This document shows, in pieces, positions 12,551-53,864 of a DNA stretch of 64,000 nucleotides. Both the position numbers and the translations under genes were made by a program. Source of the stretch: Escherichia coli (GTDB lineage Bacteria; Pseudomonadota; Gammaproteobacteria; Enterobacterales; Enterobacteriaceae). The notes below the pieces were generated by a model. That model searched no databases and had not been told where the DNA came from. It saw only the letters and a program-made list of their open reading frames with translations. Location of the stretch: the NCBI RefSeq assembly GCF_016026235.1, contig NZ_CP065613.1. One strand, 5' to 3'. Numbering within the stretch: the stretch's first letter is position 1; each line of letters opens with the position of its first letter.

Positions 12551-12956
12551 TACCACCTCTTAAAAAAATGCCCACATAGTGTAGTGCGGAGCGCATGTTG
12601 GGTAAACAGAGTGTTAATGAGAAAATATTACAGAGGAGAATAATTTGTGTGTCAGGTATGTTTTTTGCATTCATAAAATGAATGCTCTATATGTTGAAAA
12701 AATGAATTTTAAAGCTAAATAGTTTTACATCAAAAAAATAATAATATCATTTCTTGATTACCATGTGCATTTTTTATCTTACGAATATGCTAGTTTTATC
12801 TTACTAAATAAACGATTTGGTGACATGGATGATAATGTTTCAGGCTAAATGTGTGCTTATTACTTGGGCCTTTATGGCACTGTATTTATTCATTAAATGG
12901 ATGTTTGGTGGTTAATTATTATGGAAATATATGACAGTGAGGACATAAAGGTATAA

Positions 12957-13892
12957 ATGTTAACTAAAAGAATATTATTTTCTTTAATGCTAATAGTTTC
13001 ACCAGGCGTGGTGGCAAGCGAGAAAGCGCATGAATTGTATGACAGCATATACGGTGGTAAACCTGCTCCCGATGTTATAAATACACTGCATAAAATGGCT
13101 GAATCGGGAGATATCGACGCGCAGAGCCTGTTAGGCTGGGAATATTATCAGCCTCGCTATGATACCAAACCTGATGTTCAGGAAGCGATTAAATGGTTCG
13201 AGTTAGCCGCTAAACAAGGTGACAGAGAAGCTCCGTTAGCGCTGGGGAGTATCTACTACGACGGTGAGCAGGTGCGGGTGGATTATGCCAAAGCGTATGC
13301 ACTATTTAATCAGGCCGCGCAATACGGTGTGAATTTAGCATGGTCCAGGTTGGGCATGATGTACGCCAATGGTCAGTATGTTGAGGTAGATTGTAAGAAA
13401 GCGAAGGAATATCTTGATAAAGGTGTCCACATTTATGGTGGCCCGGAAGACTTTCTGGCTACTTGTCGAAAAGACATGATTGACAGAAAAACGGTTGAGG
13501 ATATGTTACCCGTGATCACGGTTACCCGTTCTGGGATGCGGGATAATTTTTTAGATAAAGGTTTTTCCTGCATGGATAGCCACTTCGCCACCACCAATAA
13601 ATTAGGCGAAGTGGCCAATCTTCGCGTGACATTCAGCATTCGTCGCCCATCCGGTAAGGAGATTAACCAAACGGTTGGCTTCGCGCCTTTCGGTTTAAAC
13701 CGGCTGAATATTAGCTTTACTGATTACCTATTTGGTTCATTTACCAGTAATTCGTCTCTTATTCTTTATAAACCGGAATTTGAGCGAAAATCTTGTGCAA
13801 CTGTAAGGACCACAATCGTTGCCGCAACGGCAACCATTAACGGCAAGGATGTGGAGTTGCTGAAAGCGGGGGCAATTGAACAAAAGTGGTAA
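12957..13892 (+). CDS. secreted Sel1-like repeat (SLR/TPR-like) protein with unassigned C-terminal domain
   Basis: 311-aa ORF; N-terminal signal peptide MLTKRILFSLMLIVSPGVVAS; repeated AxxWFxxAAxQG/YANG motifs; SD AAGG upstream; sits in an insert absent from K-12 (memory). Confidence 0.75.
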   Translation: MLTKRILFSLMLIVSPGVVASEKAHELYDSIYGGKPAPDVINTLHKMAESGDIDAQSLLGWEYYQPRYDTKPDVQEAIKWFELAAKQGDREAPLALGSIYYDGEQVRVDYAKAYALFNQAAQYGVNLAWSRLGMMYANGQYVEVDCKKAKEYLDKGVHIYGGPEDFLATCRKDMIDRKTVEDMLPVITVTRSGMRDNFLDKGFSCMDSHFATTNKLGEVANLRVTFSIRRPSGKEINQTVGFAPFGLNRLNISFTDYLFGSFTSNSSLILYKPEFERKSCATVRTTIVAATATINGKDVELLKAGAIEQKW

Positions 13893-13947
13893 CGCTACTC
13901 AGCCCCCGGCTGAGGCAAGACTTGCCCTGGCGGGTGGCGATAATAAT

Positions 13948-14490
13948 CTAAGCCGCGAGAATATGCTGAATCGCCAAAAACATAGGTACAGCACCAAAAG
14001 CATTTGGTGTCGCTGAAAGCTGAACAAAGCCGAGACGAGCATAAAAGTTAATGGCGGCAGGGTCAGCATCAAGATAAACCCCTTTAATTGGTAATGCCTG
14101 GTGAATTATTTTTACATGTTCAAAAAAATCACATAGTAGGTCCTGACCAAAGCCCCGCTTTTGATACTTCCGCGCTATCCCCAACATGACTAATCTGACA
14201 ACACCAATTTCTGAAGGTTGTGAACCCTGAAGGACGCCAGAAACGCGTTGTTTTTCCAGCGAATATGCCGTAAAAGTACAGATGCCAATCAGTTCACCAC
14301 TTTGTCTGTCAATAAGTGCTTTAGCCGCACAGTCGCTATTACGCACACTTTTCTTTAGCGATGCGCGTACAAATTTATCGATAACAGGGTTACCGCAATC
14401 AAACTGTTTTTGCCCAGGATAAGTAATATCAGACTGATAATTACAGGAGAGGACTATGGGCAGAGTAATCTCTTCATGCTTGTCGACCAT
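13948..14490 (-). CDS. GNAT-family acetyltransferase toxin (TacT/ItaT/KacT-like type II toxin)
   Basis: 180-aa ORF with GNAT acetyl-CoA motif (RKYQKRGFGQDLL); overlaps upstream antitoxin stop by 17 nt. Confidence 0.8.
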   Translation of the reverse strand: MVDKHEEITLPIVLSCNYQSDITYPGQKQFDCGNPVIDKFVRASLKKSVRNSDCAAKALIDRQSGELIGICTFTAYSLEKQRVSGVLQGSQPSEIGVVRLVMLGIARKYQKRGFGQDLLCDFFEHVKIIHQALPIKGVYLDADPAAINFYARLGFVQLSATPNAFGAVPMFLAIQHILAA

Positions 14491-14785
14491 CGCTGTTTTT
14501 CCTTTTCATTAACGCCTTGAGGGCGAGCGTCGGTTGAGCAGGTTCAGCGATGAGTTGGTTCATCAGTTCCCAGCTTTGATTCGAAAGCTCACGGCGACGT
14601 TGGTTATCAAGCACACTTTCGGCGCGTTCCATAGCAGCGCTCAAAATAAAAGCGCTTAAATCTACCCCAACGGCTTGCGCAGCTTCACGAAGTTTGTTTT
14701 TGGCGTCGGGACTAGTTTTGAGTTCGACCCGCGCATTTTTCAGCGTTTTATCGACATCGTGTAGAGTGGCTGTTTTTCCAGGCAT
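14474..14785 (-). CDS. DUF1778 (RHH-type) antitoxin partner of the GNAT toxin
   Basis: Met at 14785 with SD AGAGG; about 103 aa; precedes and overlaps the toxin gene; the ORF extension to 14851 is likely artefactual. Confidence 0.75.
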   Translation of the reverse strand: MPGKTATLHDVDKTLKNARVELKTSPDAKNKLREAAQAVGVDLSAFILSAAMERAESVLDNQRRRELSNQSWELMNQLIAEPAQPTLALKALMKRKNSDGRQA

Positions 14786-14838
14786 TATGACCTCTTTGAT
14801 TAACTGAATGAAATCGTAGGGAGTCGATCTCATACATA

Positions 14839-14916
14839 ATACGGCTATCAACCGTATGATTAATTTATGTGCATCTGCTCACTCTGTCAAGAGATACGGT
14901 TATTAGCCGTATCTCT
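14839..14916. promoter_or_regulatory. two palindromic operator-like sites (ATACGG-N7-CCGTAT) upstream of the antitoxin gene
   Basis: 14839..14857 ATACGGctatcaaCCGTAT; 14890..14916 AGAGATACGGttattagCCGTATCTCT (10-bp perfect arms). Confidence 0.45.
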
Positions 14917-14926
14917 GATCTCAGAC

Positions 14927-19765: not shown

Positions 19766-20224
19766 TTAACGACCTCAATTCCACGGGATCTGGTGGCGTT
19801 TAAAGTGTGTGGGCATTTTACGGGAAGGTTACATTACTGTAAACATGATTAAATTTCTGTTACTTAGATTTGGCTGCCAGGTCACATATGTTGCAAAACA
19901 TATCAGGTTGATTTTAAGAAGCTGTTGCAAAAGCGCGTTATAACAAAAGGGGAGTGCAGAAGGAGCCTGGGCGGGCAATTGGTATAACCAATGCGAAATA
20001 AAACAATTATTTAACAAATGATTATCATTGGAGTGACAACTGGGTGGTGAGAAAATAAAGACTCATTAGCTGAATCGTGTAAGAAAAATAGAATTTATAA
20101 ATGGCGCCAATAATTTCCAACCGCTAAGCCGCACAAAAGAACAAATATTAATAAGCGATGCTGATGTTTATTTAGCCGTAATAATTACGGCGAGTGATTA
20201 CTACAGCTAAATAATATTTACAGA

Positions 20225-41274: not shown

Positions 41275-42567
41275 CTGAGGGATCCCCAGAAAATTTAGTA
41301 AACCATTATCATATTGGTATACCGTTGCTGTAGAACTTTCAGCCCTGCGTCAAGTGACAGTGTGTTTAGTATGAGTGGAGAATGTCGAATCACATTCTCC
41401 GCCAGTTTTAATAACGAGATGACTCGCCTGTGCTTCACTGTATTTGCCTGATATTTATGATGTATCCCTTTGTTTTCCAGGCTGAAACCGCTTAACCACA
41501 TAATGATACTGGCTAATGTTGCGATCAGACTCAATACCGTGACCCGCCCGGATGAATGACTGGCACCAAACCGTAGTCCAAATCCCCAGCGAGGATTTTT
41601 TCATCCCTGAAATTTTGCTCAATTTGCATTCTACGGCTGTATAATTTCATTACCTGTTTTGGCGAGAACTCAGTACTGTTTGTGAAAATAAACCATGGTG
41701 ATTTCCCGGCAGTACGAGCTTTAGCCGTCACCGATGGTCTGGTTGCTCTTTCCTTCGAGCGTTTAAATCTACGACCTTTAGGCTTACTTTTATAAAGATA
41801 AAAATGCCCTTCATGTTGTGCATTTTTATCTCGACCCAGCAGGCCTTCACCTAAATAAATTGCTGTCGTTGATGCTTTTGTGCCTGAGTCCGACACCTTT
41901 TCCCAGCCATTACCAACATTGTAATAATGATTGCCCAGTACCCGGCAAATATAGGTCCAGCCACGGGAGCGGAGCTGTTGGAACCATCGCCCCTGAAAAC
42001 CGGCATCTGTAATAACAATGACATCAGTCCCGGGGGAAAAGCACTCAGCAAGCGATTCCAGAAAACGCTCATGTACATCTGCATTCGCTGTCTGTGATGA
42101 TGGAACGACACAACTCATCAACGGTAAAGAACGCCCGTCACATGCCAGGCTTGCCCGCAAAAGCTGAAAACGAGAGGCATGATAAGCACTCCAGTCAATG
42201 AGTATCACAACACGAGACATTCCCCGCGTAATCTTTTGGGTAATTCGCTGAAAAATGGTGGAAACCTCATTTTGCAAATGTCGATTCCCCAACAGTCGAT
42301 CCACCCGCTTTATTTTGTTTTTAACTGATGCCGTACCGGTTAAATGACGCCCGATACTGGTAAGTGTGAGGGAAGCGCCATTTATTACAGCATTAGTTGC
42401 GTCAATCAGTGATTTTTGACGGTAAAGATGCAAAGGGGCCAGTATGTTGTTAAGGAAATTTTGGCATAATGAACGTGCAGGCATAGTGGTGATCTCCTTG
42501 AAATTGTTAGCACAATCAATTAGATCACATCTCACTATGCCTGTCTTGTTTTCTGGGGATTCCTCAG
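41275..42567 (-). mobile_element. IS10-like (IS4 family) insertion sequence, about 1.29 kb
   Basis: terminal inverted repeats CTGAGGGATCCCCAGAAAA / CTGAGGAATCCCCAGAAAA; 9-bp direct repeat GGGATTGCC at 41265..41273 and 42568..42576; encodes an IS10-like transposase. Confidence 0.88.
41295..42484 (-). pseudogene. IS4-family DDE transposase, apparently frameshifted (two ORFs: 41531..42484 and 41295..41534)
   Basis: N-terminal part carries KIKRVDRLLGNRHL; C-terminal ORF carries HHKYQANTVKHRRVISLLKLAENVIRHS, both resembling IS10 transposase from memory; frames offset by 1 nt at ~41531. Confidence 0.7.
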
Positions 42568-43726
42568 GGGATTGCCCTGTTTTACGGTGGGTTGATTCGC
42601 GGCAAAAACGTGCTGTCGATGCTGACGCAGGTGACGGTGACATTTGCACTGGTCTGTATTCTCTGGGTGGTTTACGGTTACTCGCTGGCGTTTGGTGAGG
42701 GCAACAACTTCTTCGGCAACATTAACTGGTTGATGCTGAAAAACATCGAACTGACGGCGGTGATGGGCAGCATTTATCAGTATATCCACGTAGCGTTTCA
42801 GGGATCGTTTGCCTGCATTACCGTAGGCTTGATAGTTGGGGCGCTGGCGGAACGAATCCGCTTCTCAGCTGTGTTGATTTTCGTGGTGGTATGGCTGACG
42901 CTCTCTTACATTCCAATTGCGCATATGGTCTGGGGCGGTGGTTTGCTGGCTTCTCACGGTGCGCTGGATTTCGCGGGTGGCACGGTGGTGCACATTAACG
43001 CCGCAATCGCCGGTCTGGTGGGCGCGTATCTGATAGGAAAACGCGTGGGCTTCGGTAAAGAGGCGTTTAAACCGCACAACCTGCCGATGGTCTTCACCGG
43101 GACTGCCATTCTCTATATCGGTTGGTTTGGCTTTAACGCCGGGTCAGCGGGCACGGCGAATGAAATCGCGGCACTGGCATTTGTGAATACTGTGGTCGCA
43201 ACGGCGGCGGCAATTCTTGGCTGGATCTTCGGTGAATGGGCGCTGCGTGGTAAGCCTTCACTGCTGGGGGCGTGTTCTGGCGCGATTGCCGGTCTGGTCG
43301 GCGTGACGCCAGCCTGTGGCTACATTGGTGTTGGCGGCGCGTTGATTATCGGCGTGGTAGCTGGTCTGGCGGGCTTGTGGGGCGTTACCATGCTCAAACG
43401 CTTGCTGCGGGTGGATGATCCCTGCGATGTCTTCGGTGTGCACGGCGTTTGTGGCATTGTCGGCTGTATCATGACCGGGATTTTTGCCGCCAGCTCGCTG
43501 GGCGGCGTGGGCTTCGCTGAAGGTGTGACGATGGGCCATCAGTTGCTGGTACAGCTGGAAAGCATTGCCATTACGATCGTCTGGTCCGGTGTGGTGGCAT
43601 TTATTGGCTACAAACTGGCGGATCTGACGGTTGGCCTGCGTGTGCCGGAAGAACAAGAGCGAGAAGGGCTGGACGTCAACAGTCACGGCGAGAATGCCTA
43701 TAACGCGTAACAAGCACTGCAAAAAA

Positions 43727-48824: not shown

Positions 48825-49376
48825 TTACAATTTTTTGATTATTCTGGCTGGATTACCGCCCACGACAACGTTGTCCGGGACATCTTTTGTGACAACTGCA
48901 CCTGAGGCTACCACGACGTTATCACCAATGGTCACACCAGGGTTAATGACCGCGCGTCCGCCAATCCAGACGTTATTACCGATGGTGACGGGTTTCCCCA
49001 GTTCAGCACCGCTATTACGTGCTACAGGGTCGATGGGATGTGTTGCCGTGTAGATATGAACGCCTGGTGCCAACATACAGTTATCACCGATGCGAATAGG
49101 GCAGACATCAAGCATCACGCAATCGAAGTTGGCGAAAAAATTATTACCGAGAAAAATGTTATAGCCATAGTCACAGCGAAACGTTGGCTCAATATAAGCC
49201 TCTGTCACCTGACCGAATAGATCAGCGAGAATTTGCTGGCGTAATGTGTGCTCTTCCGCCAGGGAATGATTGTATCGGTGAATAAGCTGACGAGCACGCA
49301 GGCGATCGCGAGATAACGTCTCATCTGCCGAGCGATACAACTCACCAGCAATCATCTTTTCTTTTTCTGTGCTCAT
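48825..49376 (-). CDS. maa: maltose O-acetyltransferase
   Basis: 183-aa ORF with hexapeptide-repeat acetyltransferase sequence. Confidence 0.9.
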
Positions 49377-49547
49377 TACTGACCTCCGGTTGCTGAAAAT
49401 GCGGCAACACAGTAAGACGAAAAGTCAGTGAAGAGAACGTTCCCATTACATCTGTGTGATAAAGATCACATAGGGTATGTCTTCATGGCGGAAAAGTATA
49501 AAATTCTTAATAAACAGCCAGTTATAGCTCCGAAAGCGAATTATTTA

Positions 49548-49766
49548 TTAGCGAATAAATTTCCATACTGAGGAAGGGATCTTGTCGTACAGTTTATTCA
49601 TGGTCAATTCGGCGAGGCGGTGATCTGCGGCTGAGTAAAATACCGCCAGTTCATTATCTGATAATTCGTATTTATTTTTCTCGATAACACGCTCCAGCGT
49701 GTCAATTGTCTGGCAACGACGTAAACGCATTAAATAATCGGTTTTCGTTAAAGGTTTTTCGGACAT
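49548..49766 (-). CDS. hha: hemolysin expression modulator Hha
   Basis: Met at 49766 gives [35 protein letters not shown]; 72 aa. Confidence 0.92.
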
Positions 49767-49791
49767 ACTTCTACCCATGGTTGTAATAATT

Positions 49792-50166
49792 CTAACAAGA
49801 TAAACTCGCAGGATTCTCTTTCGTCGCATTGACAAAACAACGGAATAGTCGATTACCTGATTTCCGCCATTTCTGAAGATCCTGCATATTAATACCATAA
49901 CTACTGAACAACATAAAGGTGTCATCCAGATATTCGTCGATCTGCTCAATGAGCTTATTGTCTTCATTATACTTAATTTTGTAATTAAGTGCGAAGGTCG
50001 CAATATGCTCAATCAGTTCATTCAACTGGAGGTTGATCGCCGAGGTTGGGTCGTTAACCCAGCCATGATTGCTTTCTTCAAGGTTTGCAAGGCAGTCATG
50101 ATACAGGGTTTCACAGAGAAACTTAAGCTGTGCGATATCATGTCTTTTGGGTGAGTATTCATCCAT
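49792..50166 (-). CDS. tomB: Hha toxicity modulator TomB (YbaJ)
   Basis: 124-aa ORF immediately upstream of hha. Confidence 0.9.
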
Positions 50167-50674
50167 AACGCGTCCCCTTCTTAGCGGTTGAACTAACGGA
50201 CACCTTTCGGGATGGAAAAAACTTACTGACCTGGACTTGCCCTCTCGTTTGTTAGCTTAACTATAAGCCACTCTTTGCAGGTTTTCATCGCATTATTACG
50301 AAAAATTACAATTAGGAAGGAATCGGGACAGGACTCACTTTTTCATACTAGCACTAACCCGCAGCAGGTAAAAGCAGTTTGCTCGAACTGTTCATAACAT
50401 TTCAGGATTATCGCCAGATGAAATTGGTGACACTAATACCAGGATTGCTCTGAATATGACGTAATAACCGAGGAATGAATAAAGAATTACCGCAAATAAT
50501 TAAGAATAGCCTCTAAATGATTATGGATTATTAAATCTATTAGCGCTACTTAATATAAATTAACTAACAATCAGTATTTTTTATGAATTTTATCCGTGGT
50601 TAATACTGGTTTTCGTATGAGATCCTGAGTTGGTGGTTCAATTACTCCTTAATGTTCGTAGGTTATGCATAAAA

Positions 50675-50694
50675 AAGGCCGCTTGCGCGGCCTT
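50675..50694 (-). terminator. putative intrinsic terminator downstream of acrB
   Basis: hairpin GGCCGC-ttgc-GCGGCC; on the minus strand it is followed by UUUUUUAU. Confidence 0.6.
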
Positions 50695-50711
50695 AGTGAT
50701 TACACGTTGTA

Positions 50712-53864
<3,153 letters not shown>

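Follow-up and report, generated by a model that had tools for sequence, protein, structure and literature searches.

tomB-hha in a 64-kb stretch of an Escherichia coli chromosome: a known core operon encoding an H-NS co-regulator and its modulator

A type II toxin-antitoxin (TA) module is made up of two small, adjacent, cotranscribed genes in which the antitoxin usually comes first, and TA loci are typically patchy in distribution, accessory, or mobile. Systems whose antitoxin acts by chemical modification of the toxin are often called type VII. A pair that has been described in such terms is tomB-hha, whose representatives in Escherichia coli K-12, hha (b0460) and tomB (b0461), are annotated between maa and acrB. 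H-NS-Hha complexes silence horizontally acquired DNA tightly (PMC2686267). The two genes are cotranscribed (PMC2408971; PMC4191395), Hha occupies the promoter region of its own operon in vivo and represses that operon, and the toxicity of overproduced Hha is attenuated by coexpressed TomB (PMC2408971). With TomB or YmoB of Yersinia, both four-helix bundles, Cys18 of Hha is oxidized more readily to -SOxH species in a manner that depends on oxygen, by which Hha is destabilized, and YmoB is able to stand in for TomB against Hha in E. coli (PMC5155140). Loss of tomB leads to less biofilm formation (PMC8743551). The classical type II antitoxin sequesters its toxin, whereas TomB is reported to promote oxidation instead. 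The ymoB-ymoA locus of Yersinia encodes homologous proteins in the same modulator-first order; the cysteines of YmoB are C18 and C117, whereas those of TomB are C18, C25, C110, and C124. Cnu/YdgT and the plasmid-borne Hha paralogues are further H-NS-binding members of the Hha/YmoA family (PF05321; PDB 2JQT; a subthreshold match to NF007703) but are without a TomB-family partner, which the hha gene described below has.

The locus analyzed here lies in a 64,000-nt stretch of an E. coli chromosome (the window; contig NZ_CP065613.1), which is colinear with positions 435899..494542 of K-12 MG1655 except for three insertions. The hha stop codon and the tomB start codon are the exact ends of the interval 49548..50166, and the two genes are on the same strand and 25 nt apart (Table 1), as the preliminary description had read them. 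That description proposed an alignment with K-12 as a check and regarded the pair as a known, conserved module. Alignment with MG1655 showed both encoded proteins to be identical to their K-12 counterparts: hha differs from b0460 at 0 of 219 nt, and tomB differs from b0461 at 2 of 375 nt, both changes being synonymous (V37 and K102). The K-12 locus has the same acrB, tomB, hha, maa order, the same 25-nt intercistronic spacer, the same 545-nt upstream spacer, and the same promoter hexamers, and the window differs from it across the maa-acrB interval only by 8 single-base changes in 1,335 nt, the 2 synonymous tomB changes among them, with 0 indels. Together with the family profiles given below, this identity supports the reading as a known module: what lies here is the ordinary chromosomal tomB-hha operon that E. 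coli is already known to carry, a regulatory pair of the enterobacterial core.

Table 1. Positions of features at the tomB-hha locus and of the second TA-like gene pair in the window
Feature	Position	Strand	Details
GNAT acetyltransferase	13948..14490	minus	second TA-like pair
TacA/DUF1778 antitoxin	14474..14851	minus	PF08681, E=2e-17
hha CDS	49548..49766	minus	72 aa, ATG start, stop codon included; ORF list and sequence
tomB-hha intercistronic spacer	49767..49791	minus	25 nt, AATTATTACAACCATGGGTAGAAGT
tomB (ybaJ) CDS	49792..50166	minus	124 aa, ATG start, stop codon included; ORF list and sequence
Promoter-like site inside tomB	49966..49995	minus	TTCGCA-18-TATAAT, 10/12 matches, ~200 nt upstream of hha start
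Inferred tomB 5' UTR	50167..50255	minus	~89 nt; position from promoter and the -89 start of Clarke et al.
Shine-Dalgarno sequence	50173..50180	minus	GAAGGGGA; block 90% conserved across aligned spacers
Conserved CCAUCCC in tomB 5' UTR	~50208..50214	minus	nearly invariant in 17 genera
tomB-hha sigma-70 promoter	50260..50288	minus	-35 ATGAAA (50288..50283), 17-nt spacer, -10 TATAGT (50265..50260); consensus scan
AT-rich block just upstream of -35	50291..50314	minus	AATTGTAATTTTTCGTAATAAT; nearly all columns at least 90% identical, 74 sequences
AT-rich acrB-tomB spacer	50289..50674	.	probably non-transcribed, down to 30% GC
PdhR-box-like palindrome	50423..50437	plus	ATTGGTGACACTAAT, 1 mismatch to ATTGGTNNNACCAAT
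acrB intrinsic terminator hairpin	50675..50694	minus	AAGGCCGCGCAAGCGGCCTT then TTTTTT; part of acrAB, not tomB-hha

Both proteins are assigned to their families by wide margins. Hha matches Pfam HHA (PF05321; E=8e-40, 135 bits against a cut-off of 25) and the NCBIfam subfamily "hemolysin expression modulator Hha" (NF008191; 169 bits, cut-off 90), and TomB matches Pfam YbaJ (PF10757; E=1e-65, 220 bits, cut-off 25; residues 1-117 of 118) and the NCBIfam equivalog "Hha toxicity modulator TomB" (NF007948; 234 bits, cut-off 108). Among solved structures, Hha has a full-length match to the Hha chains 1JW2 and 2MW2 (E=1e-44), with 4ICG also among the closest and YmoA (2K5S) matching at 4e-34. For TomB, the closest structure is that of YmoB determined by NMR (2MN2; E=1e-49, residues 1-111), from which a four-helix-bundle fold may be inferred. 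The buried Cys18, its context, and the aromatic channel F108/F111 were defined by Marimon et al. 2016 (PMC5155140). Hha's only conserved cysteine, Cys18, in the loop between helices, is present in the window and in 80 of 80 loci collected across genera as described below. The window TomB carries K15, L17, C18, E19, C25, F108, C110, F111, and C124, and all of the TomB residues named by Marimon et al. (K/R15, L17, C18, E19, D24-C25-L26, N49, E53, A56, F84, F108, and F111) are present in it. Across the 80 loci, the residues that those authors named in TomB and Hha are invariant or nearly so; the TomB motif K/R15-x-L17-C18-E/D19 and the aromatic channel F108/F111 are invariant, except for K15R in 8 loci.

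The distribution of the pair was assessed at two scales. A megablast search with positions 49400..50800 found the locus in 5,424 of 5,426 complete E. coli genomes, with a median of one copy; the tomB-hha locus is part of the core genome. Beyond the species, a genome scan with TomB gave 299 confirmed relatives, the best 80 of which were used as loci; these come from Escherichia, Citrobacter, Salmonella, Enterobacter, Klebsiella, Raoultella, Kluyvera, Kosakonia, Leclercia, and other genera. Within these best 80 of 299, hha follows tomB without exception after a gap of 23 to 28 nt, maa comes next after hha in 73 of the 80, and acrB lies upstream of tomB, at a distance of 435 to 559 nt, in all 76 loci with enough flanking sequence. 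TomB and Hha are 89 to 100% identical across the genera of the 80 loci, with a single frameshifted hha as the sole exception, and the neighboring Maa is mostly 70 to 80% identical outside Escherichia. In Proteus mirabilis, a spacer of ~657 nt separates an RND-pump gene from tomB, which hha follows, and Providencia has kept tomB-hha behind a spacer of ~525 nt.

We regard it as very probable that the locus is best explained jointly by its identity as this operon, by a sigma-70-driven bicistronic mRNA, and by TomB acting as a post-translational attenuator of Hha. What was observed here is the identity of the genes and proteins, the conservation of the catalytic and target residues, the position and conservation of the promoter, the core distribution, and the synteny. 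The sigma-70 promoter (50288..50260) would drive a bicistronic mRNA made up of a 5' untranslated region (UTR) of ~89 nt, tomB, the 25-nt spacer, and hha. The 72-aa Hha would bind the N-terminal domain of H-NS, leading to stronger silencing of AT-rich, mostly horizontally acquired genes; both this binding and the co-repression of genes that are AT-rich or horizontally acquired are to be expected of the Hha of the window from its K-12 identity, its PDB matches, and the literature (PMC2686267). Overproduced Hha would be toxic, and lysis and biofilm dispersal have been reported. TomB, a predicted four-helix bundle, would make transient contact only with Hha, and such contact together with the oxidation of Cys18 would make TomB a post-translational, oxygen-dependent attenuator of Hha. 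Hha would repress its own operon, probably together with H-NS, by acting at the AT-rich region upstream of it, and the operon may receive an input from PdhR, both as reported. For H-NS binding, toxicity, the oxidation mechanism, and autoregulation, the proposal draws on the literature, with which the sequence of the locus is consistent.

The preliminary description had called the pair TA-like. As a hedged term with published precedent this was fair, but the label is contested, and the locus departs from TA modules in two features of distribution. The rival explanation that survives best is that tomB-hha is a classical type II TA system serving addiction or persistence, in which a labile TomB sequesters a stable Hha tightly and represses the operon at palindromes in the promoter, with degradation of TomB freeing the toxin. 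The type II layout is present, the genes being small, adjacent, and in antitoxin-first order in the ORF list and in the 80 loci, and they are cotranscribed; a list of TA-like features was drawn up by García-Contreras et al. (PMC2408971), and Jaiswal et al. reported for Salmonella the coprecipitation of the two proteins, the lability of TomB, and an electrophoretic mobility shift (EMSA) of the promoter by TomB (PMC5133643). However, a patchy or mobile distribution of the TA type is not what was found: the pair is core (5424/5426), the acrB-tomB-hha order is kept wherever it could be read (76/76) and is fixed in at least 20 genera, and conservation is high. Nor does a cognate antitoxin gene stand beside every homologue of the toxin. 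Hha homologues occur on at least 5,000 plasmid records, mostly conjugative, whereas the figure for TomB homologues is 14 "plasmid" records; of these, at least 5 are chromosome-sized (4 to 5 Mb), and most of the others have >90% identity to the chromosomal TomB of the window. Two plasmid contexts were inspected; in an IncI2 plasmid hha lies behind a topoisomerase gene, and in a Klebsiella IncF plasmid it lies behind an unrelated hydrophobic ORF of 122 aa, with no TomB-like gene in either context. The 122-aa ORF had been considered as a possible non-homologous counterpart of TomB and was rejected as a homologue, as neither BLASTP nor Pfam relates it to TomB and it resembles a hydrophobic membrane protein. 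In K-12, the chromosomal paralogue cnu likewise stands alone, without a TomB-like neighbor. A caveat to this argument is that chromosomal TomB might act in trans on plasmid-encoded Hha. Also against the type II explanation, NMR found transient contact only (PMC5155140), and deletion of tomB is not lethal (PMC5133643; PMC8743551). We consider that explanation unlikely.

The literature is itself split on the mechanism, with a stable Hha-TomB complex described by Jaiswal et al. (PMC5133643) and transient contact described by Marimon et al. (PMC5155140). In Yersinia, overexpressed YmoA is not toxic, deletion of ymoB is almost without phenotype, and an antitoxin role of YmoB is disputed (PMC11825884); with a nontoxic YmoA and a nearly silent ymoB deletion, the "toxin" side of the pair may therefore be an effect of overexpression. 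Oxygen-dependent neutralization of toxicity in vivo has been reported for E. coli TomB and YmoB (PMC5155140) but is disputed for the pair native to Yersinia (PMC11825884). The elements that a type VII-style mechanism calls for, namely, the target residue Cys18 of Hha and a conserved active-site environment in TomB, are present across the 80 loci. The locus is best described as a co-regulator of H-NS paired with its own post-translational modulator, and it may be called TA-like loosely and in the type VII sense only.

A second TA-like system had been noted in the same window, and it was confirmed as a GNAT/DUF1778 pair at 13948..14851 whose genes overlap by 17 nt. This TacT/TacA-like pair resembles tomB-hha in that both consist of small, adjacent, co-oriented genes with the antitoxin first and a downstream product that is toxic when overexpressed. 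It differs in its distribution, as the GNAT/DUF1778 genes lie in a 2.4-kb accessory island between yajR and cyoE, which K-12 is without and which was found in 1,372 of 5,426 E. coli genomes (25%), whereas tomB-hha is core and syntenic. One window thus holds two distributions, a core syntenic pair and an island pair present in 25% of genomes, which shows why the TA label for Hha and TomB is debated. A suitable annotation of the locus would be a core operon for Hha, an H-NS co-regulator, and TomB, an Hha modulator, with a 5' UTR of ~89 nt, and it should not be tallied beside GNAT/DUF1778 as a typical mobile TA module. The genes, structures, promoter, and proposed mechanism have all been published already, and the discovery value of the locus is accordingly small.

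Between the acrB stop codon and the tomB start codon lie 545 nt (50167..50711) with a GC content of 38%, compared with 50.8% for the window, and the lowest value within this spacer is 30%, at 50400..50599. Equally AT-rich stretches make up 3.7% of 545-nt windows, and 500-nt stretches of lower GC content occur only in strain-specific islands. The preliminary description had taken 50167..50700 as a long AT-rich leader; its AT richness holds, but most of it is not leader. A consensus scan found a sigma-70 promoter (50288..50260) whose ATGAAA/TATAGT pair is the constitutive RpoD promoter of tomB-hha according to Shimada 2014 (PMC3946193), and this promoter falls within the fragment from -198 to -1 that gave promoter activity with GFP in the hands of García-Contreras et al. 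(PMC2408971). The start-proximal candidate alone was active in Salmonella, and two upstream candidates were inactive (PMC5133643). Clarke et al. made a tomB/hha RNA fragment spanning -89 to +662 (PMC4191395), and because this fragment starts at -89, we place the 5' end at ~50255, 5 to 7 bases past the -10 hexamer. Given the position of the promoter, the activity of the -198 to -1 fragment, and the RNA start at -89, only ~89 nt is leader.

An alignment of 74 spacer sequences contained three conserved parts, namely, the acrB terminator, which is conserved across genera, the block 50314..50258, and the region of the Shine-Dalgarno sequence and start codon. The second of these, which joins the AT-rich element to the -35 and -10 hexamers, is the best-conserved part of the spacer across genera, and its upstream portion (50291..50314) may be an UP-element-like sequence or a site for a regulator or H-NS. 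The remaining ~350 nt is poorly conserved in sequence, with its length and AT content kept. The tomB/acrB spacer was flagged "HNS" (H-NS-bound) by Shimada et al. (PMC3946193).

A less probable explanation than the type II one is that the AT-rich region of ~545 nt is a true long leader after all or that it hides a regulatory RNA or small ORF, such as a thermosensor or an anti-Shine-Dalgarno switch, that controls tomB-hha. The unusual length of the spacer and its retention (435 to 559 nt in Enterobacteriaceae and about 525 to 660 nt in Providencia and Proteus) would suit such a role, as would a CCAUCCC motif ~45 nt upstream of the Shine-Dalgarno sequence that is nearly invariant in 17 genera and in most of them complementary to GGGAUG in the Shine-Dalgarno region. 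However, the active promoter maps no farther than 198 nt from the start codon (PMC2408971), the upstream candidate promoters are inactive in Salmonella (PMC5133643), and sequence conservation beyond the promoter on its upstream side is poor. Proteus and Providencia lack the motif, and in Escherichia the base on the Shine-Dalgarno side is C (GGGACG), giving an uncompensated A-C mismatch. Rfam scanning of the whole window at gathering thresholds returned only sraA, ffs, and the dnaX frameshift element, and a permissive scan of 49300..50800 at E<=1 returned zero matches. The 107-nt leader has no significant structure by comparison with shuffled sequences (minimum free energies of -22.9 kcal/mol for the leader and -23.3 for the shuffles; z=0.11), and RNAalifold on 17 genera gave 7 pairs with 0 compensatory changes. 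A structured leader or thermosensor was rejected as unsupported on these two results, and the Rfam, shuffled-fold, and 17-genus consensus-structure searches together found no hidden feature at the locus. The long-leader or hidden-RNA explanation has, in our view, a very slim chance of being correct. A related idea is given a slim chance: CCAUCCC might form a translational switch by pairing with GGGGAYG of the Shine-Dalgarno region (50173..50180), and the AT-rich spacer of ~500 nt, whose length is conserved, might serve as a nucleation platform for H-NS and Hha in autoregulation. Were it true, the ratio of TomB to Hha would be set by the switch, for instance in response to temperature, and the switch or the platform would each add one new point of regulation to a known operon rather than amount to a new system. 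The least tenable explanation, that the two frames are chance ORFs or decayed pseudogenes without function in this strain, is refuted by Pfam and NCBIfam scores far over the cut-offs and by the identity of both proteins to those of K-12, both frames being intact in a locus found in 5,424 of 5,426 genomes.

Within the operon as read here, a few further candidate sites were noted. Two sites with no more than 1 mismatch to the PdhR box occur in the 64 kb, the palindrome in the acrB-tomB spacer and a perfect box upstream of cyoA (19978..19992), and the tomB-hha and cyoA operons have both been reported to be direct targets of PdhR (PMC3265435). The palindrome is poorly conserved outside Escherichia in the 74-spacer alignment; owing to this low conservation it was rejected as a feature beyond Escherichia and retained for E. 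coli only. The promoter-like site inside tomB is possibly an internal hha promoter. Genomic SELEX peaks for RpoD and RpoS have been assigned to hha/tomB (PMC3946193; PMC5493296), and they coincide roughly with this site (49995..49966). In 60 of the 80 loci its -10 hexamer reads TATAAT or TACAAT; as a conserved element it was set aside as unproven, since the hexamers are largely kept but Tyr-Asn codons alone could explain this. RNase E cleaves the bicistronic RNA around tomB's 3' end and the 5' end of hha (PMC4191395). A scan of the minus strand found no intrinsic terminator after hha, and the region 49440..49560 folds no better than shuffled sequences (z=0.38). The palindrome that lies downstream of hha within this region resembles the CRP consensus site rather than a terminator.

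Several regulator-like sequences lie in and around the tomB-hha operon, and their positions are collected in the table together with those of the other features described here. Inside tomB, about 200 nt upstream of hha, is a strong sigma-70-like site (TTCGCA-18-TATAAT), and it could allow hha to be transcribed independently of TomB. Both RpoD and RpoS SELEX peaks have been reported for hha/tomB (PMC3946193, PMC5493296). The search for PdhR boxes with at most one mismatch returned only two matches in the 64 kb, one upstream of cyoA and the other upstream of tomB, and both of these operons are published PdhR targets (PMC3265435). Downstream, in the hha-maa spacer, is a palindrome that fits the CRP consensus perfectly, TGTGA-N6-TCACA (TGTGATCTTTATCACA). 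It precedes the start codon of maa (49376) by about 80 nt, and it was also scored in a scan as a weak terminator-like hairpin on the plus strand.

The 5' untranslated region of tomB carries a motif, CCAUCCC, that shows almost no variation among 17 genera and could base-pair, by complementarity, with the Shine-Dalgarno region (50173..50180). Neither covariation nor a thermodynamic signal was found for this pairing.

Relatives of the operon elsewhere included some irregular cases. The hha gene of Enterobacter sp. EA-1 (locus L068, 3397..3612) is apparently frameshifted, giving a 53-aa product, while the adjoining tomB is intact; the gene has either decayed into a pseudogene or been misread in sequencing. 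On a Klebsiella pneumoniae IncFIB/IncFII plasmid (locus L086, 2108..2476), a hydrophobic 122-aa open reading frame of TomB-like size lies 33 nt upstream of hha; sequence similarity to TomB was undetectable. Several of the tomB-carrying "plasmid" records in PLSDB are 4 to 5 Mb long, such as NZ_OL790811.1 (Proteus mirabilis, 4.08 Mb), and are evidently chromosomes misfiled as plasmids.

Selected features of the window
Feature	Location	Coordinates	Strand
Insert (~2 kb)	pgpA-yajO	1203..3169	
Pentapeptide-repeat protein, 518 aa	pgpA-yajO insert	1383..2939	minus
Island (2.4 kb)	yajR-cyoE	12561..14926	
Sel1/TPR-repeat protein	yajR-cyoE island	12957..13892	plus
GNAT/TacA-DUF1778 TA pair	yajR-cyoE island	13948..14851	minus
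PdhR-box match, perfect	upstream of cyoA	19978..19992	
ISEc60 interruption	within amtB	41275..42563	
ISEc60 transposase, split into two ORFs	within amtB	41531..42649 + 41295..41534	minus
CRP-consensus palindrome	hha-maa spacer	49455..49470	
Sigma-70-like site	inside tomB	49966..49995	
CCAUCCC motif	tomB 5' UTR	~50208..50214	
PdhR-box match, one mismatch	upstream of tomB	50423..50437	

Two intervals carry DNA that is absent from K-12. The yajR-cyoE island, present in 1,372 of the 5,426 E. coli genomes, has a very low GC content (30% at 12598..13097), and the pgpA-yajO insert is the GC minimum of the window (25%).

A third departure is an IS4-like element, ISEc60, which splits amtB. None of the 5,426 complete E. 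coli genomes matched a 1.9-kb segment spanning both ISEc60-amtB junctions at 80% coverage or more. The nearest strain for this query, FDAARGOS_943, had 36 matching places, presumably ISEc60 copies for the most part. The strain from which the window derives is probably AmtB deficient.
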